Assembly: GCA_019314155.1 (NCBI GenBank)
Contig: JAFCZV010000008.1
Location: 1-45,646, forward strand
Direction of reading: 5' to 3'
Source: Deltaproteobacteria bacterium
Lineage (GTDB): Bacteria > Desulfobacterota > Desulfobacteria > Desulfobacterales > UBA11574
DNA: 45,646 nucleotides
Shown: positions 5,596-44,266 of the stretch, in pieces
Layout: every line of letters starts with the position of its first letter
Numbering within the stretch: position 1 is the first letter of the stretch
Position numbers and translations under genes: made by a program
The notes under the pieces: generated by a model
What the model was told of the DNA's origin: nothing
Databases searched by the model: none
The model's input: only the letters and a program-made list of their open reading frames with translations

Positions 5596-5754
5596 ATTGC
5601 TAAAAAAATAAGACTGTCTATAATATTGTCAAGCCGGAAATGGGAATTTTAGGTTATGGGATTTAGAGTGCCCAAGAACAGCACAAAAAATGAGAAGGAT
5701 AAAAATTTGGTTGTGCACCCTCTATCGAATCTTTGCTGAAAAATAATAAGCCAA

Positions 5755-5870
5755 AAAATTGACCGGGATCGATCCACGACACAGACTGCATTACTTATCG
5801 CTGCTTCCTTCCGGACCTGACGAGGTTCGTAACCGTCTGTTGCGCGGCGGCCGGTCAGGATGACTTATAG
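5755..5870 (-). ncRNA. ffs: Signal recognition particle RNA (small 4.5S type). Ends are approximate.
   Basis: The minus strand reads ...GACCGGCCGCCGCGCAACAGACGG...CGUCAGGUCCGGAAGGAAGCAGC...CAGUCUGUGUCGUGGAUCGAUCCCGGUC. It contains the conserved domain IV motif GUCAGGUCCGGAAGGAAGCAGC. The 5' GACCGG pairs with the 3' CCGGUC, and a T-run follows. Confidence 0.8.
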
Positions 5871-6312
5871 GCTCCCAGGTTCAAACCCTTTAGAGGGAAT
5901 TCAGCCCCGCATGAAGCGGATTTCGGGAATAGGGCACCGCTAACTCCCCACCTAGCACAACCATGACTATGAATATAATCGATAATAAAAAAATTTCAAG
6001 TTATAAAATCGCGTCGCGTTTTTATAACCATGTGGCTTCGCCGCTCTAAGAATTGAATTCTTAATGATTCCAATACCCCATCATACCCAAATTGGCATCA
6101 CCTAGCATGCGAGATATCGGGTGCTTAAGCACAAGTTCCTGTCGGTTGGAAAGAGATATGCGCCGTCGTGGAGCGTCTGTCTCAATCGGGATTCAAATGC
6201 CTATGCCCTGCCGGTGTTTTTTATTGACAGGGAAGAATCAGCGTATCATAATTAAAGCTCTTGAAATCTATACAATTTTTTCAAAACCCAAGTAATTAAT
6301 AGTCACAGGATC

Positions 6313-27734: not shown

Positions 27735-28547
27735 CTATACTATGTCTTGTTCGAGCTTTTTGCTTAACGACTTCAGTTCGGAAGAGATTTTTGGTTTCGT
27801 CAGAATAACAATAAGGTCAAAAGTTTCCTGCTTTTGCTCGCTGTTTTCTAAATATTTAAGGGTCATAGGTTCCGCATCCCGGCCCTTTTCAACGGATTCC
27901 GGTGCTCCGGCTATAATCTGAAGCCCAGGGATTTTTTCTGCTTCGTTGAGGAACTTTTCTTGAAAGGATTGACATAAGGGGGAGATCAGGACAATTTCGA
28001 GATCTTCTGTTTTGTCGAGAGCAATGATCGATTCGTTGACACCCAGAATCAGACTGGAAAGAAGGTGCTCTTCATCGCCATTTGTATTACCCTGAACAAC
28101 GGCAATACGTCCGGGGATCTCACCGTCCAGAGGAGAAACCACCATTCCGTTGAAGGGGCCGGTTGGTGAGAGCATCCTCTCAAACTGTAAATCTGTGATG
28201 ACGTCAGGATATTTTCCATAACATAATTGGGGATTAAACGGGTGAAATGCGTTGTCCTGCCCCTTGGTAATAACGACCTCGTCAAATTCCAGCTCCAGCT
28301 CCTCGTCCGGGATGTCAAAATCGATGGCTTCAGGTTTACATTCAGCCCAACAAAGGGCACAACCCAGGCAGCGCCGGCAGCCTAAACATCGTTTGGCTTC
28401 TTGAATCGCCATCTCTTCAGGAAAACCGGTTTCAACTTCCGTATAATTTTCCCTTCTTTCATCCACCGAAATCTCCGGCATTTCTGCCCGCGGAGACGGT
28501 ACATCACTGAATGGTATAATATAGCGTTTTTCTTTTTCGTAGGTCAT
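27735..28547 (-). CDS. Fe-S protein with a GltD/NfnB-type N-terminal ferredoxin region and an HdrA-fragment-like C-terminus
   Basis: 270-aa ORF: ENYTEVETGFPEEMAIQEAKRCLGCRRCLGCALCWAECKPEAI, then LQFERMLSPTGPFNG (HdrA-like). The start abuts the stop of the upstream gene. Confidence 0.75.
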   Translation of the reverse strand: MTYEKEKRYIIPFSDVPSPRAEMPEISVDERRENYTEVETGFPEEMAIQEAKRCLGCRRCLGCALCWAECKPEAIDFDIPDEELELEFDEVVITKGQDNAFHPFNPQLCYGKYPDVITDLQFERMLSPTGPFNGMVVSPLDGEIPGRIAVVQGNTNGDEEHLLSSLILGVNESIIALDKTEDLEIVLISPLCQSFQEKFLNEAEKIPGLQIIAGAPESVEKGRDAEPMTLKYLENSEQKQETFDLIVILTKPKISSELKSLSKKLEQDIV

Positions 28548-30215
28548 TTACTTGTTCCTCAGGTATGCATGAATGCCCTCAGCCGCCCGTTTACCATGGG
28601 CAATCGCACGAATGGCAATATCCGGGCCGGTCACCACGTCACCACCGGCAAACACACCCGGGAGATTTGTGGCACCTGTCTCTTCATCTATTTCGAATGT
28701 GTTCCAGCGTGAAAGTTCAAAAGTATGCTCTTTGGGAAGAAAGCTCAAATCGGCACCCTGACTGATTGCAGGCACAATGGTTTGGGCATCGATAACATAT
28801 TCAGAGCCTTCCATAGGAACCGGACGTCTGCGGCCCGAAGCATCCGGTTCACCCAGCTCCATCTTGATGCACTTCATACCCGTGACTTTACCATTTTCAC
28901 CCAAAATTTCCACCGGGGCAGCAAGGTACTGAATAATAACTCCTTCGTGCTCAGCAGCATCAATTTCCCACGAGTTGGCCGGCATCTCCTTTTTCGTCCG
29001 GCGATAAAGAATATAGACTTCGTCAAATCCCATACGCCAGCCCACACGGGCCGAGTCAATGGCTGCATTACCCCCGCCGATTACGATAAGCTTTCCTTTA
29101 GCCTCCGGCAGATTGCCCAGGGCTTGGTTCCTCAGAAAGGTCACACAGTCAATAATCCCCTCGTATTCATCTTCACCGGGAACCCGCAGCTTGAGGCCGG
29201 TGTGGCAACCCGCGCCAATAAACACGGCGTCATATTCTTTTCTAAGATCTTCAAAAGCGATATCTTTGCCGATACGCATATTGTATTGAATCTCCACTCC
29301 CATGTTGCAGATAAGGTCTACTTCGCGCTGCAGGAGTTTTTTGGGCAAACGATATTCTGGAATACCCACCCACAGATAACCCCCGGGGACAGGCAGGGCT
29401 TCAAAGATCTTGATATTCGAATATCCCATTCTTGCCAGGTCATGGCCACAGGTCAAACCAGCAGGGCCCGCCCCGATAATCGCAATCTTTTCTGGATACT
29501 TCTGTTCAGGCGTTTCATAGACCGGCTCAATGCCCTGTTGCAGCTCAACATCCGCAGCATACCGTTTGAGGAAACATATGCTGATCGGTTCATCCAGATA
29601 CTGCCGGTTGCAGGCTGTTTCACAAGGATGCGGACAGATACGGCCGATACTGCCGGGAAGCGGTAGTCTCTCTCTGATTTTAGCCAGAGAGTCAAGATGC
29701 CTGCCGTCTGCAATGAGACCGACATAAGCGCGGATATCAAGATTAACGGGGCATGTCTCCTGGCAGACCGGCATGTCTTCCTTATAGATGTTGTATTCGC
29801 CGGTTTTGGGGTGGCAGTAGTCCACGGCGGTGCGAAAGCCCAAACCCTCGTCAAAGTCGTCAAACATGTTAACCGGACAGACCTTTATACAGGCCTTGCA
29901 GTCGTTGCACTTACTATTATCGACCATGAGGCTGCGTTTTAAGATCCGGGCCTGTATGCGTCCGTTCTCCGGAGACACCTTTTTGAGATCAGTGTAAGTC
30001 AAAATCCGGATGTTCGAATGATTGCGAACCTTCTCCAAGTCAGGGTTTACAAAGGCCTCATCCGGTTTAATCAGCCTGTCCCTTGGGATTCTTTCTCCAC
30101 CTAGAGTGGGGAACTTCTCGACAATAGTAACCTGGTCCCCTGCTTCTGCTCTTTCAAGGGCGGTCCGGACTCCATTGAGTCCTCCTCCAACAACCAACAC
30201 TTTTTTGTCTTCCAC
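28548..30215 (-). CDS. NfnB/GltD-like NAD(P)H-dependent flavin oxidoreductase with an N-terminal HdrA-like FAD-fold remnant and ferredoxin insert
   Basis: 555-aa ORF: VLVVGGGLNG; CNDCKACIKVCP; ICPHPCETACNR; IAIIGAGPAGL; PGGYLWVGIPEYRLPK; VIGGGNAAID; VFAGGD. Confidence 0.85.
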   Translation of the reverse strand: MEDKKVLVVGGGLNGVRTALERAEAGDQVTIVEKFPTLGGERIPRDRLIKPDEAFVNPDLEKVRNHSNIRILTYTDLKKVSPENGRIQARILKRSLMVDNSKCNDCKACIKVCPVNMFDDFDEGLGFRTAVDYCHPKTGEYNIYKEDMPVCQETCPVNLDIRAYVGLIADGRHLDSLAKIRERLPLPGSIGRICPHPCETACNRQYLDEPISICFLKRYAADVELQQGIEPVYETPEQKYPEKIAIIGAGPAGLTCGHDLARMGYSNIKIFEALPVPGGYLWVGIPEYRLPKKLLQREVDLICNMGVEIQYNMRIGKDIAFEDLRKEYDAVFIGAGCHTGLKLRVPGEDEYEGIIDCVTFLRNQALGNLPEAKGKLIVIGGGNAAIDSARVGWRMGFDEVYILYRRTKKEMPANSWEIDAAEHEGVIIQYLAAPVEILGENGKVTGMKCIKMELGEPDASGRRRPVPMEGSEYVIDAQTIVPAISQGADLSFLPKEHTFELSRWNTFEIDEETGATNLPGVFAGGDVVTGPDIAIRAIAHGKRAAEGIHAYLRNK

Positions 30216-30310: not shown

Positions 30311-30426
30311 GGAATGGAATACTGGAATGCTGGAATATTGGGGATAAAAGCGGAAAATAAACCATTTAAATTGTAAAAAAACTCCTTCAAACCCATCATT
30401 CCATTACTCCATCATTCCATTATTCC
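30311..30426. repeat. Repeat-armed inverted repeat (8-nt period GGAATnnT)
   Basis: The left arm 30311..30343 (ggaatggaatactggaatgctggaatattgggg) is complementary in register to the right arm 30392..30426 (cccatcattccattactccatcattccattattcc). The right arm overlaps the stop codon of gene 30420..31208. Confidence 0.8.
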
Positions 30427-31208
30427 AATTGGGGCGAAGCCACTAAGTTCAAGATTGGCGATCGGCCGGTTACCTTGTCAAGGGCAACCATACCCTTTCG
30501 TTTGAGGGCGGTTATGTATCGAAAGACCCTTTCTGAGGGAATGGCCAGGTCCCGGGCCAGGTCCTTGACTGACCGGGCACCTTCCTTGAGTCTGGCAAGA
30601 ATTTCCTGGACCTCCATTTCTTCCACTATGATCATATCAATGGCACGGTTAAATTCGTGTTCCGTGAAGATTTCACCGTACTTGTTGCCTGACTCCATAA
30701 ATTCGGTTTGCTTGCCGATGATCCACCGCATCTTTTCGCCGGCCAGCACCGCCTCGGCTGCTTCCAGCTTCTTAAAGATTTCAGGAGCCTGCAGGGTGTC
30801 TCTTCCACCTCCAATAGGTCCTAAACCGCGAATCTTCTCATTAAACTTGGTAACCAGTTCTACAAAGACGGCGGCTTCGCCCGAAGAGCATTGCCGAAAA
30901 GCAAGACGATTTTCATTGACACCAATATATTCGAAAAGTCGGCGAGTCATGTCTATTTTAATCTTGGCCTGGACATTCCCGGTGATATAATGGCAGTCGC
31001 CGAAATGGCACCCCACTACCAAAAGACCGTCAAGTCCTTTTTTGAAGGCCTTGGCTACGGTCGCCGGGTCCATCCGACCGGAACACATGATTCGAACAGT
31101 CTTAATCTCCGGGGTATATTGTAGTCTGGAAACTCCAGCTAAATCAGCGGCGGAGTATCCTCACCATGTACAGCAAAACGCGAGAATTTTGGGAACGAAT
31201 TGGGTCAA
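30420..31208 (-). CDS. mvhD: MvhD-like [2Fe-2S] protein with selenocysteine (TGA 31161..31163) and a C-terminal winged-helix-like domain
   Basis: TTG start at 31208 behind RBS GAGGAGG. The hand-translated N-terminus is [40 protein letters not shown], joined in frame to the ORF-track product MCSGR...VVGCHFGDCHY.... The C-terminal 60 aa (ILARLKEGARSVKDLARDLAIPSERVFRYITALKRKGMV) look like a wHTH. Confidence 0.8.
31122..31141 (-). promoter_or_regulatory. Candidate SECIS hairpin for TGA 31161..31163
   Basis: mRNA UAG(C)CUGGA-GUU-UCCAG(A)CUA, beginning 19 nt 3' of the UGA. Confidence 0.5.
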
Positions 31209-31227
31209 AGGAACCTCCTCAAAAAAA

Positions 31228-31367
31228 TTGTTGATTTATGATTGTTGATTGTCGATTGAAAAAAAAGTACACTTACCGACTTTAATCTACGTTTTTTTCT
31301 TACTTGATTTTCTGCTTTGTGCTGTTCTTCAATAAATCACCAATCATCAATCATACATCATCAATCC
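31228..31367. repeat. Repeat-armed inverted repeat (7-nt period GATTGnT)
   Basis: Arm 31228..31258 (ttgttgatttatgattgttgattgtcgattg) against arm 31330..31367 (caataaatcaccaatcatcaatcatacatcatcaatcc). 25 of 31 positions are complementary and the loop is about 71 nt. The distal arm overlaps the stop codon at 31361. Confidence 0.85.
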
Positions 31368-33046
31368 AAAAACGCGTCAATCTGAGCTTCAAGTTGGTTG
31401 TTTGTATAGGAGTTAATGGTTAAGGCGTGCTGATAGCAGGTAGCTGCGCACACCCCGCACCCCTTGCAGGCCACATCAATCACGTGAACCTTTTTCCCTT
31501 TTTCCGTGTTGCTAATCTCAAGAGCACTATAAGGACAAAGCGCGACGCAAAGGCTGCAGCCCCGGCAGGCGTCTTCATCCGCCAATACAGAAATAATCGG
31601 CTCTACAACAATCGAACCCTTAGACATGGGAATCGAGGCTCGAGATGCCGCACCTAAACCCTGGGCAATCACTTCTCGAATATTGGCCGGAAAACGGGCG
31701 CTGCCGCAAAGGTAGATGCCGTCGGTAGCAAAATCGAGCGGTTTTAACTTAACATGACCTTCCAGAAAAAATCCGTTTTCATCAACCGGCACCCTGAGAA
31801 GCTGAGAACTCACATTGGCATCCTCTTGGGCAACCAGCGGTGTGGAAAGGACCACTATATCCGCAGTCAAAGTCATTTCGCGGCCAAGTAGAGAATGGTA
31901 AACTCGCACCTGATCGGATTCCACCTGGGGAGGCCGGGCAGAATCATAATGGATGTACCGGACTCCCCTGGCTTTGGAATCCCGGAACATCTCTTCGTTT
32001 TCGACACCGTACATCTGCATATCCCGATAGAGAATGGAAACTCCGGCATCCGGGATTTGATCCTTGATCAATATAGCGTTCTTGACGGCTATCTGGCAGC
32101 AGATCCGCGAACAGTAGGGTCTCTCTTGATTGCGACTTCCTACGCACTGGACGATAACAACGTTCTTGACATCTGTATCCAAACCTTCTTTGAGAAGCTG
32201 CTCCATCTCAAGCTGGGTGATAACGCGCCGGCCGTCATAGCCGTAAAGGCCCTCGGGAACAAAGGCACGGCTACCAGTGGCCACTATGATAACCCCAATG
32301 TCAAATTTCTTTTTGCCGGATTCGGTCTCGACCTCGACGTCGAATTTGCCGATAAACCCCTGGACGGCGGTAACGCGTGCCCCGGTGAAGACGGTAATCT
32401 TGTCATGTTGCATGACTTCCCTTATCTTCTCCTCAATCAGCTCACCCGCATCTGTCATGGCGGGTCCAAGCTTATGCAGCCGGTTCAGCATGCCGCCTAA
32501 TCCCTCTTCCTTTTCAACCAGCACCACTTCATATCCACGCCTGGCAAGGGCCGCAGAGGCTGTCAGGCCGGCGATTCCTCCTCCAATAACAAGAGCCCGG
32601 GCACAAACTTCGGACATAATGGACTCCTGGGGTTTTAATAAAGCCGCCTTGGCAACTCCCATACGGATAAGATCCTTTGCTTTGGCGGTTCCATCCACCT
32701 GCTGTTGCATATGCACCCAGGAGCATTGATCGCGGATATTGACCATCTCGAAAAGATAAGGATTCAGCCCGGCCTCTTCACAGGAACTTCGAAAAAGAGG
32801 TTCATGGGTTCTCGGCGTACAGGAAGCAACCACAACGCGATTGAGGTTTTGCTCTTTGATTCCCTTTTTAATTTCGTTAATGCCGCCTTCAGAACACGAA
32901 TAAAGATTCCTCTGTACAAACGTTACATAGGGAATCGTCCGGGTATAATCGTCAAGCGCTTCCATATCCAGATAGCCGGCAATGTTGGATCCGCAATGGC
33001 AAAGAAATACTCCGATCCTGATGTCATTGTCTTTATTCTCAGGCAA
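31361..33046 (-). CDS. HdrA-like flavoprotein (N-terminal Fe-S domain, FAD domain, C-terminal 2x[4Fe-4S] ferredoxin)
   Basis: 561-aa [65 protein letters not shown]...CKGCGVCAATC. The TTG start lies behind RBS AAGGAGAAGG and overlaps the upstream stop by 8 nt. Confidence 0.85.
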   Translation of the reverse strand: MPENKDNDIRIGVFLCHCGSNIAGYLDMEALDDYTRTIPYVTFVQRNLYSCSEGGINEIKKGIKEQNLNRVVVASCTPRTHEPLFRSSCEEAGLNPYLFEMVNIRDQCSWVHMQQQVDGTAKAKDLIRMGVAKAALLKPQESIMSEVCARALVIGGGIAGLTASAALARRGYEVVLVEKEEGLGGMLNRLHKLGPAMTDAGELIEEKIREVMQHDKITVFTGARVTAVQGFIGKFDVEVETESGKKKFDIGVIIVATGSRAFVPEGLYGYDGRRVITQLEMEQLLKEGLDTDVKNVVIVQCVGSRNQERPYCSRICCQIAVKNAILIKDQIPDAGVSILYRDMQMYGVENEEMFRDSKARGVRYIHYDSARPPQVESDQVRVYHSLLGREMTLTADIVVLSTPLVAQEDANVSSQLLRVPVDENGFFLEGHVKLKPLDFATDGIYLCGSARFPANIREVIAQGLGAASRASIPMSKGSIVVEPIISVLADEDACRGCSLCVALCPYSALEISNTEKGKKVHVIDVACKGCGVCAATCYQHALTINSYTNNQLEAQIDAFLD

Positions 33047-34589
33047 CGGCCTTCTCCTTTTCTGACTTTAATTGAATTGCGATTTCAGCGGCACGTTCGG
33101 CAGCGCTTGAAGCCTGGGCCACAGATTCCGGTACATCCATGGGCGACTCTGCACAACCGCAGACAAAAACTCCCGGCACTGTGGTGTCGACCGGAGAGAG
33201 GGGGCTCGTCTTTATGAAGTTGTACTTATCCAGTGCGACTTCAAAAACTTTGGCCAGCTTAATAATTCCCTTGGTTGGCGCACAGGCGGTAGCCAGGATC
33301 ACCATGTCGAAATCCCGGCTTTCCACTTGCCGCTTGTGCGTGTCTTCGTAAATCACGACTGGATTGTTAGCAGGACCCTCCATGATCTCACTGACCCTCC
33401 CGCGGACATAGGAAATGTTCGAGTTGTTGCCGCCTCGTATTTTATACTCTTCAAATCCTTTGCTTACCGCCCGGATATCCATGCCGAAGATGGTGGAGGT
33501 CGTCTCCGGCTCGTGCTCGTGGGCGATTACGGCCTCCTTGATGGAGTGCATGCAGCAGTAACCCGAGCAAAACGGATAAAACCGGAAATCACGGGAACCC
33601 ACGCACTGGACAAAGGCCAGTTTCTTGGCGACGGTAAAGCCCTCGGCCTTCTTTTTCAAGGCTTCCAGGGGTTCCATGATCGCCAGATGGGTAGCATACT
33701 TATCAGCCCACTTCTTGCGGCCCTGTTCGTCCCGGTCGTCCTGATATTGGCCTTGCCGGTATTGATTATAAAATTGAGCGGAAGTTTGGTCATATTTTTT
33801 TTCAAGTTTCTCGAGCGTTCGCTTAGATTTTTTTAAATTCTTTTCAAGTGCTGCAATCTCGGCTTCAACGGCTCGATCCGAGGGACGATCCAGATGTCCT
33901 TCTGTGGGACCGCTGGCGCTCAAGAGTCTTTCGAACTCCATTGCCGTAACCACGTTGGGGATTTCCCGGTACCGGTATTCGGGAATCTGTGACGGATCGA
34001 AAACGTCGTATCCGACGGCAATGATTATGGCACCTACATCGAGGGTTATGATCATGTCTTCCTGATCAAAATTTATGGCGTCGGCCTGACAGGCTTTTTT
34101 ACAGATCCCACATTTTTTGCCTTTAAGCTGACGACAGAAATCAGGGTCAATGGTATGGGTCGAGGGTATGCCCTGGGCAAAGTAGCTGTAAATTGCACTG
34201 CGACTGCCCAGACCTTCATTGAAGGCATCCGATACCTTGGTCGGGCATTTTTCAGCACAGGCGCCGCAGCCGGTACATTTGTCCTCCTCGACATAGCGTT
34301 TTTTCCTACGCACGGTGACATTGAAGTCTCCCGCCAGACCTTCTACCTTCTCGACTTCGCTGTAGGCCAGAAGAGCTATATTAGGATGTCGACCGACATC
34401 CAGCATCTTGGGCGAGAGGATTCAGATGGCACAGTCGTTGGTAGGGAAGGTTTTATCCAGCTGTGCCATCTTGCCGCCGATGCTGGGCAGTTTTTCCACC
34501 AGGTGGACGTTGACACCCATGTCTGCAAGGTCCAGAGATGCCTGGATTCCAGCAATCCCTCCGCCTATAACCAGTACGTCTTGACTCAT
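33039..34589 (-). CDS. hdrA: HdrA-like FAD/Fe-S protein with selenocysteine (TGA 34422..34424)
   Basis: ATG at 34589. Hand translation: [61 protein letters not shown], joined in frame to the ORF-track product MLDVGRHPN.... The TGA falls at the second Cys of the HdrA FPTNDCxxC motif. Confidence 0.88.
34384..34401 (-). promoter_or_regulatory. Candidate SECIS hairpin for TGA 34422..34424
   Basis: mRNA GGAUGUC-GGUC-GACAUCC: a perfect 7-bp stem with a GGUC loop, starting 20 nt 3' of the UGA. Confidence 0.65.
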
Positions 34590-34607
34590 AATCTGTGTCC
34601 TTATTTT

Positions 34608-34740
34608 AAGTGACTAAAGTGAGCTAAAGTTATAAGTGAGCTAAGGTTGTGGAACTCGCCTTCGGCGATGTCAATGTTATAATTAAAATAGATAGAATAC
34701 CTTAACTTTAGGCACTTCAAACCTTAGGCACTTCAAACTT
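34608..34740. repeat. Repeat-armed inverted repeat (about 13-16-nt unit AAGTGAGCTAAAGTT)
   Basis: Arm 34608..34648 (aagtgactaaagtgagctaaagttataagtgagctaaggtt) against arm 34699..34740 (accttaactttaggcacttcaaaccttaggcacttcaaactt). The centre contains a GCC-TTCG-GGC mini-hairpin. Confidence 0.8.
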
Positions 34741-34745
34741 TTCAG

Positions 34746-35873
34746 TTACTCTGTTTTCAGGCAATCGGTAACCAGGTCATACAAATCTGTGATCTCTATT
34801 TCCAGATCAAAAGCTGCTTTTGCACACCGCAAGTGAATCTGGCATTTGGGGCAGGCCGTTACTAAGGTGCCGGCACCGGTGTCGCTTGCTTCACTAAGGC
34901 GTTGCAGCTGGATGTCTTTGGAACAGTTGGAACAGTTCATCCAGCCGGAAGTTCCGCAGCAGACACCGTTTTCTCTGGAACGGGGCATTTCTTTGAGTTC
35001 AATTCCTGGGATAGCTTCCAGAAGTCTGCGGGGTGCATCGTAGACACCTGCCATCCTGCCAAGCCGGCAGGGATCATGATAGGTCACCACTTCTGCTTTG
35101 GATTCCGATAGCTGAATGATACCCGAACTCAGTTTGTCTGCCAGAAAATCAAGAATGTGGACCGGTTCAAAATCGAGCTTTCCAAAATACTTGGGATAAT
35201 AATCTTTAAAGGTATGATACCCTTCCGGGCAGCTGAAAATCACCTGCTTGGCACCTGAAGAACGGATCATATCAAGATTCCAGCGAGCAAGTTGCTTGAA
35301 CGTGTCTTCGTTGCCGTTCCAAAGCGCATCATGGCCGCAACACCGTTCATCATTACTGACCACCGGCTCCACCCCGCAGGCGTTTATAATTTTCAGCACA
35401 TTCCGGGCCCCTTGAATTGATCCGGCATTGATATTCCGAAAAATAACATCAAAATAAGGCCTGCATCCCACAAAATAAAAAACATCGCCCGTTTCTTTGG
35501 TTTTCCCATCCTCGACCCAAAAAGTGCGGTTTTGCTGAACATCCTTGGTCTGGATGGACATAATAGCCTGCAGCATCCCATGGTGAGCCGGAACGCCGTC
35601 AAAACCCAGCAAATGGGCTTCATCACGCATCAGGCGAATGAATTCAGGAAAATTTATGTCGGCCGGACAACGGACACTGCACTGGGCGCAGGTAAGGCAG
35701 CTCCAGATAGTATCGTCTGAAAACTCCTCCAGTTCATAAAGAGAGCGCTCAATAATCTGCCTGGGTGAAAATTCGGGGAAAATCCTGGAAACCGGACAGC
35801 TTCCGGTACATACCCCGCAATCAAGACAGTAATAGGTCTTCGTAGCGTTAACCATTTCTACGATCGTATTCAT
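34746..35873 (-). CDS. HdrD-like Fe-S oxidoreductase (HdrC-type 2x[4Fe-4S] fused to HdrB-type CCG domains)
   Basis: 375-aa ORF: CLDCGVCTGSCP, CLTCAQCSVRCP, then CCG-type motifs (ERCCGHD, HDPC, VCCGTSG, TACPKC). Confidence 0.85.
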   Translation of the reverse strand: MNTIVEMVNATKTYYCLDCGVCTGSCPVSRIFPEFSPRQIIERSLYELEEFSDDTIWSCLTCAQCSVRCPADINFPEFIRLMRDEAHLLGFDGVPAHHGMLQAIMSIQTKDVQQNRTFWVEDGKTKETGDVFYFVGCRPYFDVIFRNINAGSIQGARNVLKIINACGVEPVVSNDERCCGHDALWNGNEDTFKQLARWNLDMIRSSGAKQVIFSCPEGYHTFKDYYPKYFGKLDFEPVHILDFLADKLSSGIIQLSESKAEVVTYHDPCRLGRMAGVYDAPRRLLEAIPGIELKEMPRSRENGVCCGTSGWMNCSNCSKDIQLQRLSEASDTGAGTLVTACPKCQIHLRCAKAAFDLEIEITDLYDLVTDCLKTE

Positions 35874-35975
35874 GCTAACCCCTTTGGTTTTTATTTTGCA
35901 GTCGTTCAGGGTTGCTTTTCTATTGTTAACCTTTACTAACCCCGAACCTTGAACCTTTGAACGGTTATTTTTTTA

Positions 35976-36395
35976 TCAGGCCGCCTTTTTTAAGATGGAT
36001 GGTCCCAAAGATTTAATCTGCTCAGTAAAGTTTCTGGCAACCTCAGCAAAACGCGTTCCTTCTGCCGATGAAATCCATTCCAGGCGCAGTCTCCCAGATT
36101 CAATTCCAAGTATACTGACCAGCTCCTGGGTCATTTGGAACATCTTTTCGGCCTTTATATTACCATCCAGGTAATGGCAGTCGCCCATGTGTCATCCAGC
36201 TACCAGGACACCATCGGCACCCAATTGCAGGGCCTTTAAGATGAAATTGGGGTTCACCCGGCCTGAACACATTACGCGAATGATGCGCATGTTGGACGGA
36301 TATTGAAGACGGCTAACGCCTGCCAGGTCGGCAGCCGAATAGGCACACCAGTTACAGGCAAACGTAATGATCTCTGGATTGAATTCTTCAGCCAT
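35976..36395 (-). CDS. mvhD: MvhD-like [2Fe-2S] protein with selenocysteine (TGA 36192..36194)
   Basis: ORFs 36192..36395 and 35976..36188 are in one frame: ...[23 protein letters not shown]...[21 protein letters not shown].... The TGA replaces the first Cys of the MvhD GCHxGDCHY motif. Confidence 0.85.
36159..36175 (-). promoter_or_regulatory. Candidate SECIS hairpin for TGA 36192..36194
   Basis: mRNA AUUACC-UGGAU-GGUAAU: a perfect 6-bp stem starting 16 nt 3' of the UGA. Confidence 0.55.
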
Positions 36396-36449: not shown

Positions 36450-39400
36450 TCAATTAAAAGCGGCCTCCACCATCGTTAGCACCTGCTGGTCATCAAAATG
36501 GAAAATAGAAGCCGCACCGGTGGGACAGGCAACAGCACATGAGCCGCATCCCGTACACATGGCCTGGTTTACTTCACAGAGAATACGGTCTTCATGAAAG
36601 TCAATGGCCTGATAAGGGCAGGCCTCCAGACACTGCCGGCATCCCCTGCAGAACTGTGCATTAATATCAGAGACGATGGCATTGCCCAGGACCTTGTCCT
36701 TGGACAGCAGCGTAGCCGCTCGTGAAGCGGCTCCCAGACCTTGAGCTACGGCTTCGTCGACAGGTTTGGGCGCATGGGCCAGGCCGCAGACAAACACCCC
36801 TTTGGTGGCAAAATCTATGGGCTGGAGTTTGACATGGGCTTCCACAAAAAAGCCATCTTCATTCACCGGCACCTTGAACAATTGAGCAATGGGATTTTCC
36901 TGCGGTGCCACAATCGCAGTGGCCAATACCAGCATATCCGGTTTTATCTCGATCTCGCGCTGCAGCACATAGCTGGTGCATCTAACATTAAGACCGTTTT
37001 GATCTTTGGAAACGGTTAAACCTTTGTCAAAGTCATAACGAATAAAGACTACGCCTTTGGCTCGGGCCTCACGGTACAGCTCCTCCCGCAATCCATAGGT
37101 TCGCATATCCCTGTAGATAATGAAGACATCCATCTCGGGTTTTGACTCTTTTAATTTGAGCGCACTTTTGACAGAGTGAGTGCAGCACACCTTGGAGCAG
37201 TACGGCCTTTCTTTGATTCGTGAGCCGACACATTGTATAAAGACCGCCGAATCAGTTTCATTTAGAGGCAAACTATTATCGATAAATTTTCGATCCAATT
37301 CCAAAGCGGTCAGAACACGCGGATCTTCACCGTATAAATATTCATCCGGTTTTAACTCTACAGCACCTGTGGCAATAATCGCCACTCCGTGCTCGATTAC
37401 CTGCTCTTTTCCCGCATTTTCAACGGTGGTTTGAAAATTACCCACAAAGCCGCCCACTTTTTTTACTTGGGTGTTTGTCAGGATATTGATGTTTTGATCG
37501 GATTCTATGTCGCTAATAAGCCTTGTTAGATTTTGCTGAACATCTTCGCCCTGCCAGGTTTCATAAAGGTTCACTGCCTGTCCTCCCAGGGCGTCGTTCT
37601 TTTCAATAAGATGGGTGAGATATCCCTGCTGTGCCAGATTCCTTGCCGCGGTAATTCCGGAAAGACCACCGCCGACAACCAGAGCGGACTGGTTCATTAT
37701 TATCTCCGGATCGGCAAGCGGCTGCAACAAGCTCACTTTGGATACTGCCATGCGTACAAGGTCTATAGCCTTTTCAGTGGCTGCGTCTTTTTCGTTGCTG
37801 TGCACCCAGGAACACTGATTGCGAATATTAGCCATTTCAAAGAGATATTTATTGATCCCCGCATTGAGTACGGTTTCCTGAAAGAGAGGTTCATGGGTAC
37901 GCGGGGTGCAGGCGGCTACAACAACGCGATTTAATTTTTGCTCTTTAATAACCTGGGTTATTTGTTCCTGGGTATCCTGACTGCAGCTGAAGAGATTATC
38001 TTCTACAAAAACTACGTTGGGTAAGGTTTTGGCATATTCGACGACATCCGGAACCTCTAAAAAACCGGCAATATTGGTTCCACAACGACAGACAAACACG
38101 CCTATCCGCGGGTGCTCTCCCCGTACATCTAGCTCTTTAGGGGTTGACTTTGTCCGTATCATAGACCCGCGGGACTCGGCCAGCATACTTTCCACCACGG
38201 CAGCAGAGGCGCTCGATTCGATAACGGACTGGGGAATATCTTTGGGGCTTTCAAAGGTGCCGCATACAAAAATACCGGGTTTTGAAGTCTGAACAGGTTC
38301 AAAACTGCTGGTTAGAGCGTGCTGATATTGATCGAGCTCAATTCCCAGCTTTTGGGCCAGGCCCAGCGCTTCCTTTGACACGCCAAAGCCCACCGACAGG
38401 ACTACGATATCAAACGCTTCTTCAATCCGTCGGCCGGTTTCGTCTGTGTAGCTGATAAGCAGATTGCCCGAATCGCCGTCCGGGTGAATCGTGCTGATTT
38501 TTGATTTGACAAAACGCACGCCCACCTCTTTGGCCCGGTTGTAGTAACGCTCAAAATCTTTACCGAGGGTCCGCATATCAATATAAAATATGGTGGTATC
38601 CAGCTCCCCCTTCTGGTGCTCTTTGGCTATAATAGCCTCTTTTATGGAATAGGTACAGCAGACCGCCGAACAGTAAGGCTGTGACCCAGGGTGCATGTCT
38701 CTGGAACCCACGCATTGAATCCAGGCAATTTTCTGCGGCTCTTTGTGATCGGAAGGTCTTACCAGATGCCCGCTGAAAGGTCCGGTTGCCGCAAGAATGC
38801 GCTCAAATTCCAGGCCGGTAACTATATTCGGTGATTTTTTGTAACCATAGGTGTCGTAAGTACCAGGATCATACACCGAGCAACCGGGGGCTATCAGCAC
38901 CGCACCTGCATTTATGGTTAATTCCTTGGGTTGGTCCTCAAAATTAATAGCGTCAGCAGGACAGAATTTCTCACAGGCCTTACATTTGCCCTTTTTAAAA
39001 TAGATGCAATTTTCATCAATGGCGTACTTTAAAGGCACCGCCTGTTCGTATTTCACATAGATCGACTTGCGTTTGGCTAGACCGGCGTCGAATGCGTTTG
39101 TCACCTTTTTGGGACACTTTTCAGCACAAATACCACAGGCAATACATTTATCCATGTCAACATACCGGGGTTGTTGCAAAACCTTGATTTCAAAATTTCC
39201 TTCCTCCCCGGAAATGCTTTGCACTTCTGTCAGGGTCAAAAGCTCAATGTTAAGATGCCGGCCGACCTCGACCAGTTTAGGTGAGATGATTCACATGGAA
39301 CAGTCATTAGTGGGAAAGGTCTTGTCCAGTTGAGCCATGATACCGCCTATGGAGGAGGATCTTTCCACTAGAAAGACATAAAAACCTGAATCGGCAAGAT

Positions 39401-39470
39401 CCAGAGCAGCCTGCATACCGGCTATCCCCCCACCGACTACCATTACCGAACCTATTTTCTCATTTGACAT
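36450..39470 (-). CDS. hdrA: Large tandem HdrA-HdrA fusion flavoprotein (about 1006 aa) with selenocysteine (TGA 39291..39293)
   Basis: ATG at 39470. Hand translation: [77 protein letters not shown], joined in frame to the 929-aa ORF-track product. The second half repeats the HdrA architecture ([45 protein letters not shown]-terminal [12 protein letters not shown]...[12 protein letters not shown]). Confidence 0.9.
39258..39275 (-). promoter_or_regulatory. Candidate SECIS hairpin for TGA 39291..39293
   Basis: mRNA CUGGUC-GAGGUC-GGCCGG: a 6-bp stem including two G-U pairs, with GGUC in the loop, starting 15 nt 3' of the UGA. Confidence 0.55.
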
Positions 39471-39473
39471 TTT

Positions 39474-40346
39474 CTACTCCTGAATCAAAAAAGATGTAAC
39501 GCCACTGATATCGAGCTGATTCATTCCGATTCCCAAAGTCTTTTCGTCAATTCCCATACTCAGCCCTAAAAGTTGCGGGTAAAGAACAGGGGCAAGCGAG
39601 TCATTCCCGTTTTGAGAGATTATTACTTTTTGTATTGTATCAAATTGCAGATGACAGTACGGACAGGCCGAGCAGAGATAGTCAGCACCGACTTTTTTCC
39701 CGTCTGCTATCTTTCTTTTGGTCAAACTCATGGAAAGATCATCATTTACGCCCAGTACGGGAGCTCCGCAGCATTCCAGTTTGCTGGTCCAATCGACGCT
39801 TTTGGCGCCTGTCACCTCAACCAGCTTATCAAACAGAGTGGGGGCAACCGGATCATCGAATTGGGTGATCTTGCTCGGCCGCAGTGCATGGCAACCGTAA
39901 TGGGTCACGATTTTAAAATCTTTGTATTGTCTGGTTATTTTGCTTTTTAAGGTGTCCAGGCCAACATCATGATACAGCACGGAAAGAAAATGCTTGATCT
40001 TAGGTTTGCCGGCGTAATTCAGGTCTCTTTGAGCCAGCAATCTGTTGACTTCTTCCTGCAAATTCCCTTCTTCCTTCAGTATATGCTCTGCTTCCTTAAG
40101 GCTGCCAAAGCAACATTTGCAAAGGACCATGATATCGAGCCCCGCTTTTTCTGCCAGGGCCAGATTTACGGCAGAAGAAAAAAGAAACGACCTCTGGTCT
40201 GAATTTCGTAAGGGATACCCGCAACAGTTAAATTCGCGGATATCCGTCAGACGTACGTCTATCTGCCTTAAAATTGCCCTGGCAGAAGCTTCATACTGTT
40301 CAACCCGGGCAGGAATATTACAGCCCAAGAACAATGCATATTTCAT
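39474..40346 (-). CDS. hdrB: HdrB-like protein (two CCG domains)
   Basis: 290-aa ORF: FLGCNIP...FNCCGYP, ...HYGCHALRP...LECCGAP. The stop lies 3 nt before the start of the large hdrA. Confidence 0.87.
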   Translation of the reverse strand: MKYALFLGCNIPARVEQYEASARAILRQIDVRLTDIREFNCCGYPLRNSDQRSFLFSSAVNLALAEKAGLDIMVLCKCCFGSLKEAEHILKEEGNLQEEVNRLLAQRDLNYAGKPKIKHFLSVLYHDVGLDTLKSKITRQYKDFKIVTHYGCHALRPSKITQFDDPVAPTLFDKLVEVTGAKSVDWTSKLECCGAPVLGVNDDLSMSLTKRKIADGKKVGADYLCSACPYCHLQFDTIQKVIISQNGNDSLAPVLYPQLLGLSMGIDEKTLGIGMNQLDISGVTSFLIQE

Positions 40347-40380: not shown

Positions 40381-42162
40381 TCATGCTGCCTCTAAATCGG
40401 AGGGGCTTTCATCGGCAGTCTTTTCCGCATTTTTAACAGCAAGATTCTTTAACTGAAAGAAAATATCCGTGACCTGGACGTTCTGGGGGCAATGCTCCTG
40501 GCACTGATAACAGGTCACGCAATTCCAAAGCATACTTGGGCCGGAAGCCATTTCTACCAGGCCCAAACCAAGACAGTTCATGATTTGATGGGGCAACAGG
40601 CCCAGAGTCTTTTGAGGATTCTCATAGCAGACTACAACGGGACATACTGTGGTACAGTTCTGGCAGCCAAAGCAGTAGGAGAATGTGCTGCTGCTTGGCA
40701 GCTTGTTCAATTCAGCGATTTTTCTGTCCTTAAAAGAGATCGGCCTGCTCTTATCCATTACCTGTTCAAACTTGCCGGCAGCAGCCCGGCTTGCCACTGA
40801 CAGCGGCTTGCCATAATCATCTTCAGAGATATTCTCTCTATTCAAGCCCCGGTAAAAGGAAAACGGAGAAAGAATCAGCAGCTCCGGATAGCCTCTTTGA
40901 ACCAGATCCTCCCTTACAACGAACCATAATTCCCTGAGATTGATCCCTGCCGGACAAACCACGGTACATCGGTCACAATTCGTGCAAAGGTAAACACCTT
41001 CCTGTATGGCGCACAGCTCCTTTTGGCTGAGGTCTTTCCCGGAAGCCAGGCTTTTGAGAAAGGTCATCTTTTCTGAAGGCAAAATGTATTCATTGCCCAG
41101 GGCATCAAATGCCGCCGAGGCAGAGCATCGCAGACTGCAGGTTCCACAGCGCATGCAGGCATCCAGCTCCATGGCCTGCCGCGTTGCAATATTTGCCGGG
41201 TCTGATTTTTCCTTGTCCATGACTGAATTTGCAAGCAGGCTTAGGGGCGTGGCGAAAATGTGAAACATCTTGCTGAACGGCAGATAGGCCAGTCCAAAAA
41301 AACAGGCTAAAAAATGGATATACCACAGGATGTCAGAGGCTTTCGCTCGGTCCAATGCTAAGGCGATAGGTTTCGATATTTTGGCAAACGCATACCCCAT
41401 AAAGGCCCATTGAGGCGGAGAATGACAGTCCATACAACTCTCCTCGTGAATCTCTTGGCCCGAAACCAGCACATCTTCTTCGAAAGGACCCTTTACATTC
41501 GGGGATACTACACTAAACTTTTGAACCCAGTAACTTTCAAGCGCCTTTATTTCATCTTCGTCATCCTCTAAGGTCATATCGGCATAATCCTCCACCATGA
41601 TCTGAAATTCGGTATAAGACGCAATTTTTGTTGCTTCCAGAAGCACACCCGAAATCATAATGACGGCCAGAATAATAATGGCATAGTGATCCATGGCGTT
41701 GGTTTTTAGGCGGGGCACTTTCAAGATGAACCGTCGATATATGGCAATACCAACACCAATAATTACCATAAAACCGAACAGATCTCTTAAAAACATAAAT
41801 GGATTGACCGTGGAATAGTAATCGGTGAAAAGAGGCTCGGATATAAAGACCTCGAGAGCATGCATCAAAAGAAGGAGCATAAAGCCGGTGTAGATCAACA
41901 TGTGCATCAACCAGCGGAGAAAATCCTCCTTGAGAATCCTTCTCTGCAGCACAACATCAAGGACAAAAACCTGGATAAGGATCAGAATGTTTGCACTGAA
42001 AATAACTCCCAGCATCCCTTTGACAGACGCAGATATCCTCTCAGACGGTGAGATGCCTTTGGCTGAAATGCCGATTCTGCGAGTAAACCAGGTCGAAATT
42101 TTGTAGATCAGACCAAGGGCTAAGATAATAAGGGCAATGTACAATGAGATAGAGAAAAACAT
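40381..42162 (-). CDS. Membrane NarI/HdrE/DsrM-like cytochrome b domain fused to two HdrC-like 2x[4Fe-4S] modules
   Basis: 593-aa ORF. The N-terminal ~300 aa have 5-6 TM helices with conserved His (HMLIY, MHALE, DHYAI, YIHFLA, FHIF). The C-terminal part has CMRCGTCSLRC...CTNCDRCTVVCP and CFGCQNCTTVCP...CVTCYQCQEHCP. Confidence 0.83.
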   Translation of the reverse strand: MFFSISLYIALIILALGLIYKISTWFTRRIGISAKGISPSERISASVKGMLGVIFSANILILIQVFVLDVVLQRRILKEDFLRWLMHMLIYTGFMLLLLMHALEVFISEPLFTDYYSTVNPFMFLRDLFGFMVIIGVGIAIYRRFILKVPRLKTNAMDHYAIIILAVIMISGVLLEATKIASYTEFQIMVEDYADMTLEDDEDEIKALESYWVQKFSVVSPNVKGPFEEDVLVSGQEIHEESCMDCHSPPQWAFMGYAFAKISKPIALALDRAKASDILWYIHFLACFFGLAYLPFSKMFHIFATPLSLLANSVMDKEKSDPANIATRQAMELDACMRCGTCSLRCSASAAFDALGNEYILPSEKMTFLKSLASGKDLSQKELCAIQEGVYLCTNCDRCTVVCPAGINLRELWFVVREDLVQRGYPELLILSPFSFYRGLNRENISEDDYGKPLSVASRAAAGKFEQVMDKSRPISFKDRKIAELNKLPSSSTFSYCFGCQNCTTVCPVVVCYENPQKTLGLLPHQIMNCLGLGLVEMASGPSMLWNCVTCYQCQEHCPQNVQVTDIFFQLKNLAVKNAEKTADESPSDLEAA

Positions 42163-43096: not shown

Positions 43097-44266
43097 TTAA
43101 GAGACAAATCGCGATCCCACCCAGAGGGTCAATCCAGCCACTCCACCAACAATTTCAAGGGGTACAGCCCATCGCATCTCTTTTTTGATGACACCGGAAA
43201 GAGATGTGTAGGTCGAAGCGCCGGTAAAATTCATGGCAAGATACGCTGCCGCCGCCGGGGCCAGAAAAAACCACGCCAGAATTTCAACATAACCCGGCCA
43301 CATGTTAAGATATCCCGCCCAGAAAACAGTAACGACCAGGGTCGTCCCCAGGCCCATGATCAAACCTTTCAGGGAAAAGGCGCGACCCGGAATCCAGGGC
43401 AGAAGAATCGGCGTTAAAACCGCTCCGGCCACCAGTGCTCCCAGCAGATTGAGCACAGCAAAAAGGCCATCGGTCATTGCACCGTTCCAAAATCCGGAGG
43501 GTGCTCCCAAACCTCCCAGCAGAAAAAAAGCAGGCAGCATCACCAGGGACCATTTTAAAACACTCACGAGTTCGATCGGAATTAGAATGGCCCTTTCCCT
43601 TACAGGAAAGGTCTTGCGCCGCATCCCCGGCGTTGCCTTCAGACCGGCATCCAGAAAAGCCGGCAAATCAGCGGTCCGGATCGGGCCGTAAATCGCTTTG
43701 AAACCGGAGCGTTTTCTAACCGTGTACGCAGCAACACCGGGACCTGCCAGCTGGGGAAGAATGACCTCCCGGTGGGACACCACACGGATCAATCCGCTGA
43801 GTTCGATGCGTTGAACCAATTCATCGGTTCCGAACGTTCCTTTTCCGGCGGCACACCAGACATTTATCCCTTGTGTGTTCAGAACCAGAATCCATGCATT
43901 CCGTCCGGGCAGGGCTTCACGCAATCGGTCAAAACTCATTTTGTAATTGGCCGTAACCAGAACCGGCGACTGATCATCCGGATCTCCAAGCGCATAAAGA
44001 CCGGGATCCACGGTATAATGCATACGGCCCACACCCCAGCGTGCCTTAATGCCGCCCCATCGGTCCGCCCAAACCAACGCGGATGAAATTTTTGGCACAT
44101 CACCCATCGATGTCCGGATCGAGCCGATAATAAACGGCTGTTTCATGTCGGGAAGGCTCACCTGAGCCTTTATCTTCCCGGGTCAGCAACTGCCGGTCAA
44201 AGATTCCGCCGACCCGGTTTCATGACAAGATTGTTTTTTCAAAAAATCAAGGGGTTTCATATCCAT
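43097..44266 (-). CDS. hgcA: Mercury methylation corrinoid protein HgcA, with a proposed N-terminal extension containing selenocysteine (TGA 44183..44185)
   Basis: The cap-helix signature GINVWCAAGKGTFGT is present, followed by a C-terminal domain with about five TM helices. The ORF track starts at GTG 44161. The same frame continues upstream as MDMKPLDFLKKQSCHETGSAESLTGSC-TGA-PGKIKAQ to ATG 44266, with RBS GAGGAA 8 nt upstream. The core HgcA call is very confident; the Sec extension is moderately confident. Confidence 0.85.
44149..44180 (-). promoter_or_regulatory. Candidate SECIS hairpin for the hgcA TGA 44183..44185
   Basis: mRNA UGA-CC-CGGG-AAGAUA-AAGGCUC-AGGU-GAGCCUU-CCCG. A perfect 7-bp upper stem with an AGGU tetraloop begins 12 nt 3' of the UGA. 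A CGGG/CCCG lower stem flanks a 6-nt bulge. Confidence 0.55.

Follow-up and report, generated by a model that had tools for sequence, protein, structure and literature searches.

Probable selenocysteine at reciprocal positions of two MvhD-type adaptor proteins in a conserved Desulfobacterota operon

Two MvhD paralogues, each with an in-frame TGA

The stretch of DNA analyzed here (the window; 45,646 nt of Deltaproteobacteria bacterium, GCA_019314155.1, contig JAFCZV010000008.1, positions 1 to 45,646 of the forward strand) carries on its minus strand a ten-gene operon related to heterodisulfide reductase (Hdr). Within this single operon, 5 kb apart, lie two paralogous genes for MvhD-type adaptor proteins, mvhD-1 and mvhD-2, each with one in-frame TGA and each at a different place. 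The locus raises the question of whether both codons are read as selenocysteine (Sec, U), whether the two positions are equivalent between the proteins, and how such a pair came about. The best explanation, which we regard as probable, is that two Sec-encoding UGAs are present in two anciently diverged MvhD-type adaptors, which belong to two HdrA modules of one conserved Desulfobacterota operon. The two genes and the two sites in question are as follows.

35976..36395, minus strand: mvhD-1, short form, 139 residues plus stop (family T1, see below), with Cys at site A and predicted Sec at site B; FlpD/MvhD match, orthologues in 80/80 loci
36345..36347, minus strand: TGT of Cys17 of MvhD-1 (site A), aligned with accessory Cys16
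36192..36194, minus strand: UGA of predicted Sec68 of MvhD-1 (site B), aligned with Cys67 of solved MvhD
30420..31208, minus strand: mvhD-2, long form, 262 residues (family T2), in which site A is predicted Sec and site B is Cys; MvhD domain at residues 1-130
31161..31163, minus strand: UGA of predicted Sec16 of MvhD-2 (site A), aligned with accessory Cys16 of MvhD
31008..31010, minus strand: TGC of Cys67 of MvhD-2 (site B), where the site-B hairpin is absent

The ATG start of mvhD-1 is preceded by GGGAGG and its TGA stop is followed by TAA, while the TTG start of mvhD-2 is preceded by GAGGAGG. With TGA translated as U, MvhD-1 reads ...ITFACNWC17AYSAADLAG...VLVAGU68HMGDCHY and MvhD-2 reads ...ILAFCCTWU16GYSAADLAG...LLVVGC67HFGDCHY, which reproduces exactly the protein strings of the first-pass annotation of this DNA. 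Both proteins match the Pfam FlpD/MvhD profile (PF02662; cut-off, 22.3 bits) over its full length (positions 1-123 of 123), MvhD-1 with 183.3 bits (E value, 2e-54) and MvhD-2 with 157.8 bits (E value, 1.5e-46). In addition, both align to the solved MvhD chain 5ODC_D without gaps over the two sites (E values of 1e-48 for MvhD-1 and 7e-39 for MvhD-2), and the solved chains 9SW2_D and 8RVU_F likewise align to both proteins without gaps. In the numbering of Methanothermococcus thermolithotrophicus and Methanothermobacter marburgensis, site A is the Cys16 column and site B is the Cys67 column. Since the alignment is free of gaps, the two sites are homologous columns in both paralogues. This confirms the earlier claim that each paralogue carries Sec where the other carries Cys, at two conserved positions. 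The two proteins share 47% identity and differ in length and architecture.

Decoding of the two UGA codons

A scan of one genome per species gave 80 loci from Desulfobacterota-type metagenome-assembled genomes and strain NaphS2. The loci were picked by similarity to MvhD-1, and families T2, T3, and T4 were sampled solely as its neighbors. Together, they hold 133 complete MvhD domains in four families, each of which is monophyletic (states are given as site A/site B).

T1 (MvhD-1 type, FACNWC...AGUH): short, 139 residues; C/U, encoded as TGY (A) and TGA (B) in 80/80
T2 (MvhD-2 type, FCCTWUGY...VGC[YH]F): long, ~261 residues with a winged-helix tail; U/C, encoded as TGA (A) and TGY (B) in 27/27 complete genes
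T3 (CFLCTWUAY...GGUH): short, ~145 residues; U/U in 24/24
T4: long, 252 residues; C/U in 2/2 (L020:14911-15700 and L023:14941-15730)

This survey of Sec at each site shows that the reciprocal pattern of the window holds throughout both of its families. In the T2 family, the residue after Cys67 is Tyr in 23 of 27 genes instead of the otherwise highly conserved His68; the MvhD-2 of the window, which retains the His (codon 31005-31007), is one of few T2 genes to do so. The codons just upstream of both TGAs keep their amino acids while synonymous change is free, and this protein-level selection indicates translation on both sides of the TGA. Furthermore, Logan contigs from the runs of three other studies span both TGAs, with no change there among the differences listed. 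The first-pass annotation had considered that one TGA might be a sequencing error, or that one gene might not be translated past it. The former is contradicted by the invariant TGA in 80/80 and 27/27 genes and by the independent assemblies, and the latter by the coding-type conservation on both sides together with the hairpins frozen behind the TGA, described below.

Public gene calls treat these genes differently. The best 120 T2 matches listed are all shortened at the N terminus (query coverage, 82-91%; mostly ~215-240 residues) and start after the TGA. T1 homologues are split, or site B is read as Trp (or once each as Leu or Gly) in matches at 71-86% identity; the Trp readings are code-4 gene calls, in which the terminal TGA is read as W as well. 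Taken at face value, such calls speak for TGAs that are not Sec codons: true stops of split or shortened genes, marks of pseudogenes, sequencing errors, or codons read through by another tRNA. We consider this scarcely credible. A shortened MvhD-2 would be without the Cys13 ligand and the CxxU motif, and a split MvhD-1 would part the ligands, while the TGA is invariant and the neighboring HdrA genes bear a classical Sec codon at the Cys197/205 site. Among 5.8 billion proteins searched, no Cys variant of T1 or T2 was found in close relatives, and the nearest true Cys/Cys proteins are ~64-68% identical and archaeal where named. The protein searches retrieved no named relatives of MvhD-2 (such as BamF, discussed below), just N-truncated close relatives without names. 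Since the public calls for these two families are mostly shortened, split, or in the wrong code, the selenoprotein family is under-counted from protein databases. Taken together, both in-frame UGAs are almost certainly selenocysteine codons, as judged from comparative sequence analysis.

Hairpins behind the probable selenocysteine codons

Bacterial Sec insertion requires a hairpin in the coding region just downstream of the UGA, the selenocysteine insertion sequence (SECIS). A candidate lies behind each TGA of the two genes.

36159..36175, minus strand: predicted SECIS hairpin for site B of mvhD-1, AUUACC-UGGAU-GGUAAU, at +19..+35 from the U of UGA, over codons H-Y-L-D-G-N
31122..31141, minus strand: predicted SECIS hairpin for site A of mvhD-2, UAG-CUGGA-GUU-UCCAG-(A)-CUA, at +22..+41

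The mvhD-2 hairpin consists of a core stem (+25..+37) closed by a GUU loop, extended by a lower stem with a bulged A. When compared to shuffled sequences, the fold of the mvhD-1 hairpin has a z score of -0.07 and that of mvhD-2 a z score of -2.0, neither of them remarkable; the single-sequence fold of the hairpin in the fused HdrA gene of the operon was not separable from shuffles either. Because single-sequence folding does not discriminate for mvhD-1 and the fused HdrA, comparative codon analysis was used instead.

Behind site B, the codons CAU UAC CUG .. GGU AAU yield AUUACC-N5-GGUAAU with a minor-codon share of 0.000 in T1 and T3, and all six pairs are kept in 74/74 unique T1 sequences and 23/23 unique T3 sequences. 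In T2, which has Cys at this site, synonymous choice at these His, Tyr, Gly, and Asn codons is free (minor-codon share, 0.448), and the closing pair is lost, as the first codon base is A or G rather than C. The situation is mirrored behind site A: in T2, the codons GCU GGA GUU UCC are invariant in 27/27 genes (minor-codon share, 0.022), and in T3, eight codons are frozen in an 8-bp stem with a GGCUG loop at +15..+35 (minor-codon share, 0.013), while in T1, with Cys at site A, the corresponding downstream codons vary (minor-codon share, 0.46-0.48). The mvhD-1 gene is predicted to have no SECIS after Cys17 because synonymous variation is free there. The same amino acid motifs follow both sites in all families, and synonymous choice is frozen solely behind a TGA. 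This natural control, provided by the Cys-bearing paralogue, is the strongest support for Sec decoding that the sequences offer. In this way, the earlier proposal that each TGA has its own downstream hairpin is borne out by comparative codon evidence and not by single-sequence energy.

A long, irregular structure returned by RNAalifold for the T2 site-A region was rejected in favor of CUGGA-GUU-UCCAG, where the synonymous sites are frozen. No match to the hairpins was found in Rfam; the sole match in the window at the gathering threshold is a bacterial large signal recognition particle RNA (RF01854; 142.9 bits) at 5711-5960 on the minus strand.

Much of each hairpin is preset by the amino acid motifs A-D-L-A-G-V-S and H-Y-x-x-G-N, which lowers the barrier to SECIS gain. 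Conversely, the SECIS appears to dictate the protein sequence at the eighth codon after site B. This codon is Leu (CUG) or Gln (CAG) in all T1, T3, and T4 genes with Sec, presumably since the stem is closed by its first base; where site B is Cys, the residue is Ile or Val (in T2) or Asp (in methanogens).

Conservation of the operon

The operon has the following layout in addition to the two mvhD genes.

42162..40381, minus strand: membrane iron-sulfur protein resembling QmoC/HdrC, at the operon head
40346..39474, minus strand: HdrB-like protein, at the head of the operon
36450..39470, minus strand: fused double HdrA, 1006 residues, BamE-like layout, upstream of mvhD-1; predicted Sec60 in DCSMU (UGA 39293..39291)
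34746..35873, minus strand: HdrD-like protein (HdrC+HdrB fusion with a pair of CCG domains), located between the modules
33039..34589, minus strand: N-terminal part of the split second HdrA; predicted Sec56 in DCAIU (UGA 34424..34422)
31361..33046, minus strand: remaining, C-terminal part of this second HdrA, immediately upstream of mvhD-2
27735..30215, minus strand: HdrL-type NAD(P)H module, GltD-like flavoprotein in two open reading frames, downstream of mvhD-2

Both mvhD genes follow HdrA genes, in the window as well as in all related loci. The conserved order is HdrAA(CxxU) > T1 > [HdrD] > HdrA(CxxU) > HdrA', followed by one of three endings: T2 with HdrL (~27 loci), T3 (~26 loci), or T4 (2 loci). 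The HdrL module is the constant companion of T2. Synteny of the whole operon, four UGAs included, extends to ~27 other species-level genomes. In ~26 genomes, T3 (for example at L011:8583, L063:13809 of strain NaphS2, and L028:13824, with ~24 other loci) takes the place of MvhD-2 plus HdrL, giving an operon with five Sec codons; both sites of T3 are Sec, each with an in-frame hairpin of its own. T4 shares the helical and winged-helix tail of T2 but reverses the states of MvhD-2, its counterpart among the long forms: site A is Cys and site B is Sec. Based on this fixation and synteny across loci, the reciprocal pair of the window is a conserved operon state, fixed in long-established paralogue families.

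Upstream of the operon, the gene at 43097-44266 encodes a corrinoid (CdhD-like) domain. Three operon spacers (30400-30600, 31204-31404, and 34621-34821) contain short direct or tandem repeats, such as GTTTGAAGTGCCTAAG, present twice, and AGCTCACTT, which is repeated. The word depths of these spacer repeats in metagenome contigs reach hundreds to thousands, and spacer length variants in such contigs skip ~70 nt at 34630-34704. The operon spacers are variable or repeated elsewhere, and the coding parts are not.

Origin of the reciprocal pair

The first-pass annotation had proposed that two independent Cys/Sec exchanges, each with a new SECIS, occurred inside this operon; in such a scenario, Cys-to-Sec changes would have followed a local mvhD duplication. 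The proximity of the two genes, 5 kb apart in one operon, would fit such a history, as would the different hairpin of each gene and the ease with which wobble tuning could create a SECIS from motifs that preset much of it. However, the paralogues are only 47% identical with different lengths and architectures, each state is fixed in a family found in dozens of species-level genomes (80/80 and 27/27), and conservation extends to the operon as a whole, including all four UGAs. Elsewhere, T1 pairs with T3 or T4, so the families predate the arrangement seen in the window. Recent lateral spread of copies of a single operon is argued against by protein identities of 69-88% among the 80 loci. The proposal of exchanges within the operon is therefore not upheld and is very unlikely.

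Nor is a single reciprocal swap the picture, because U/U (T3) and a second C/U family (T4) also exist. The four families with Sec group together in a single clade, to the exclusion of the sampled Cys/Cys proteins (support, 93/92). Within this clade, none of five alternative groupings of T1 to T4 was rejected on the 128-column domain (approximately unbiased test, p-AU 0.29-0.43). Whatever the topology, the phylogeny implies at least three Sec/Cys switches among the four families, all of which would predate the separation of the genomes sampled. The site-B hairpin, which is identical in T1, T3, and T4, suggests a single origin of the site-B SECIS, followed by its loss in T2 or preceded by an earlier split of T2. 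For site A, the differing forms in T2 and T3 suggest remodelling or separate gains.

A history that starts from a double-Sec ancestor deserves attention in this context. Here, the ancestor shared by the bacterial families would have resembled T3 and archaeal VhuD in its Sec at both sites; T1 and T4 would have lost Sec at site A and T2 at site B, each by a single change from TGA to TGY, after which the superfluous hairpin decayed. Converting Sec to Cys takes one base change, while a gain requires a SECIS. The existence of a U/U family, T3, whose operon slot is that of T2 and T4, also agrees with such an ancestor, as do the single clade of Sec families, the shared site-B hairpin, and the lack of a rejected branching order. 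On the other hand, this history takes two gains and three losses where the best trees take three gains, and the nearest outgroups are Cys/Cys. The site-A hairpins are moreover out of register between T2 (5 bp with a GUU loop, +25..+37) and T3 (8 bp with a GGCUG loop, +15..+35), and their Ser codon families differ (UCC in T2, AGU in T3). Archaeal VhuD, which uses a SECIS in the 3' untranslated region (3'-UTR; PMC4989117), could not have passed its double Sec to bacteria as such. On balance, reciprocal loss from a double-Sec ancestor is possible but doubtful. Given the archaeal 3'-UTR SECIS (PMC4989117), Sec at both columns arose independently in Archaea and Bacteria.

The suggestion that the locus is a clean natural experiment on which Cys of MvhD benefits from selenium does not hold, since Sec occupies both sites at once in T3 and archaeal VhuD, and the two proteins of the window have different architectures and partners.

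Putative roles of the two sites

Alignment to solved MvhD identifies site A as the accessory redox Cys16 and site B as Cys67, a putative [2Fe-2S] ligand. In solved MvhD, Cys16 is a conserved additional cysteine which lies, together with Cys202 and Cys205 of HdrA, in the space that separates the [2Fe-2S] cluster from the bifurcating flavin adenine dinucleotide (FAD) (PMC13580544). A cysteine near the MvhD cluster makes a regulatory disulfide, and the corresponding residue is Sec19 in BamF (bioRxiv 10.64898/2026.04.10.717634). In M. marburgensis, His68 and Asp71 of MvhD are at the HdrA interface (PMC13580544); these residues flank site B. When 151 representatives of 50%-identity clusters are compared, near-invariant Cys is confined to exactly five columns (13, 16, 42, 67, and 72, each Cys in 149-151 of 151), and column 12 is mostly Leu or Ala. 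Both MvhD-1 and MvhD-2 have Cys or Sec at all five columns in the alignment to 5ODC_D. Provided that Cys16 is the extra cysteine, the cluster ligands would be residues 13, 42, 67, and 72, and site B would be a cluster ligand.

The Sec residues of the two partner HdrAs point to the same region. In HdrA alignments, those of DCSMU (residues 57-60 of the fused double HdrA, its N-terminal CxxU) and DCAIU fall on Cys197 of the M. thermolithotrophicus protein and on Cys205 of that of M. marburgensis; Methanococcus maripaludis HdrA has Sec197 in this place (PMC13518236). In terms of the Cys202/Cys205 pair, both partners would have Sec at its second position. In view of the MvhD sites and this HdrA position, all four Sec residues of the operon would surround the gap between the MvhD cluster and the flavin.

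For MvhD-2, an AlphaFold2 model (pLDDT, 85) predicts the MvhD domain (1-130), a helical linker (143-209), and a winged helix (214-255). In Foldseek, the model matches 5ODH_D, 8RVU_F, and 7BKB_F (TMt, 0.84-0.89; E value, 1e-13) as well as winged helix-turn-helix (wHTH) folds. The MvhD fold of MvhD-1 was assigned from its sequence (E value, 1e-48).

From these elements, a working model can be drawn. SelB would read each UGA by means of its own coding-region SECIS hairpin. MvhD-1 would serve the fused double HdrA as its cluster adaptor and present a [2Fe-2S] cluster with one selenium ligand, in keeping with the T1 pattern of invariable Cys at the Cys16 position and invariable Sec at the Cys67 position, the putative ligand beside His68/Asp71. 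The T2 pattern is the converse, with Sec throughout at the accessory Cys16 position and Cys at that of the ligand, an arrangement that would match BamF Sec19 as described. The winged helix of MvhD-2 would most likely dock the HdrL NAD(P)H module, as BamF docks BamI. Electrons may then pass from NAD(P)H through HdrL to the all-Cys cluster of MvhD-2, on to Sec16, the CxxU pair, and the FAD of the split HdrA, with HdrD as the high-potential exit. All four Sec residues would lie at the junction that links the cluster of MvhD with the bifurcating FAD. The homology of the sites, the fixation of their states, the selection on the hairpins, the synteny, and the architecture are observed; selenium as a cluster ligand, a site-A relay of the selenol/selenenylsulfide type, tuning of the potential, and the electron path are what we infer from them and from the analogy to solved systems.

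Several points weigh against this explanation. Conservation does not separate ligand from accessory Cys, as the five columns are equally invariant among the 151 representatives, and Cys67 as a [2Fe-2S] ligand is reached by elimination from the published structures together with that conservation. The correspondence of BamF Sec19 to Sec16 of MvhD-2 derives from numbering and the description in the BamF paper. The hairpin pairs display no compensatory double change, the variable pairs changing on one side alone, and the site-B hairpin of mvhD-1 folds no better than its shuffles. Finally, no tRNA is present in the window, and hence no tRNA-Sec.

Within the favored explanation of two Sec-bearing adaptors, selenium may have two chemically different, partner-specified roles at the same HdrA-type bifurcation step, as cluster ligand in T1 and as relay in T2. 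We put this forward tentatively and rate it below even chances. If it is true, T1 would provide a natural selenium-ligated iron-sulfur cluster with an obligatory Sec and a tuned potential, and the long NAD(P)H-coupled adaptors (T2 and BamF-like proteins) would use Sec between cluster and flavin. Neither family would then tolerate Cys at its Sec site, consistent with the lack of such variants in close relatives among the proteins searched.

Comparison with known systems

The solved MvhD proteins of M. marburgensis and M. thermolithotrophicus (5ODC, 9SW2) share 46-60% identity with the window proteins, have the same five Cys columns, and place His68/Asp71 beside site B. They differ in having Cys at both sites as aligned, with the caveat that HMMER renders Sec as Cys (5ODC).

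VhuD of Methanococcales and Methanopyrus has Sec at both positions, ~50 codons apart, the first in CxxU (PMC4989117, PMC13188914). It belongs to the same fold and family (PF02662) and is likewise an adaptor between an electron-input module and HdrA. In contrast to the two Sec residues in one protein with one archaeal 3'-UTR SECIS, the window has one Sec per protein and bacterial in-frame hairpins. MvhD-1 and MvhD-2 score 134.5 and 119 bits with the NCBIfam VhuD model NF045873, under its cut-off of 215 bits, and the operon holds no hydrogenase genes (MvhA/MvhG or vhuA/G/U). Judged by score and gene neighbors, the two proteins are not VhuD proper.

BamF, from the class II benzoyl-coenzyme A reductase (BCRII) complex of Geobacter metallireducens, is a long MvhD-type adaptor, exceeding MvhD by >100 residues, whose winged helix docks the NAD(P)H-side module; it has Sec19 at the near-cluster accessory Cys, and its partners are a fused double HdrA (BamE) and the HdrD-like BamD (bioRxiv 10.64898/2026.04.10.717634). 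MvhD-2 resembles it in its C-terminal wHTH tail (214-255) and its HdrD/HdrA neighbors, and its predicted Sec16, aligned with MvhD Cys16, would fit the description of Sec19. However, the operon of the window is without the BamB/BamC tungsten enzyme and without BamGHI; HdrL (GltD-like) stands in their place, with HdrB and a QmoC-like protein in addition. The predicted linker of MvhD-2 is also helical and not a second Rossmann domain. A sequence search of the PDB gave no BamF chain, and Foldseek gave just MvhD and generic wHTH folds.

Closer in taxonomy, Desulfobacterium autotrophicum HRM2 has MvhD1/2/3/5 as selenoproteins beside hdrA/hdrL (PMC2702500). It is a member of the same phylum with hdrA or hdrL followed by mvhD and several Sec-MvhD paralogues in its genome. 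In the parts of this source consulted, the selenoproteins are listed without the Sec position of each paralogue, family patterns, or SECIS (PMC2702500).

Sec-MvhD and VhuD, both Sec positions, a bacterial long form with site-A Sec, and multiple Sec-MvhD paralogues are therefore already known. In the literature searched, there was no statement of a family-specific reciprocal fixation of the Sec position, of paralogue-controlled SECIS evidence for Sec-MvhD, or of all Sec residues clustering at one junction. The locus adds no new mechanism, but presents known selenoprotein families with a useful comparative twist. Across the operon families, every Sec would lie at the cluster-flavin junction, at ligand position 67 of MvhD, at MvhD Cys16, or at the second position of HdrA Cys202/205, and the paralogues fix the C/U, U/C, and U/U combinations, which makes them ready natural variants for spectroscopy and mutagenesis.

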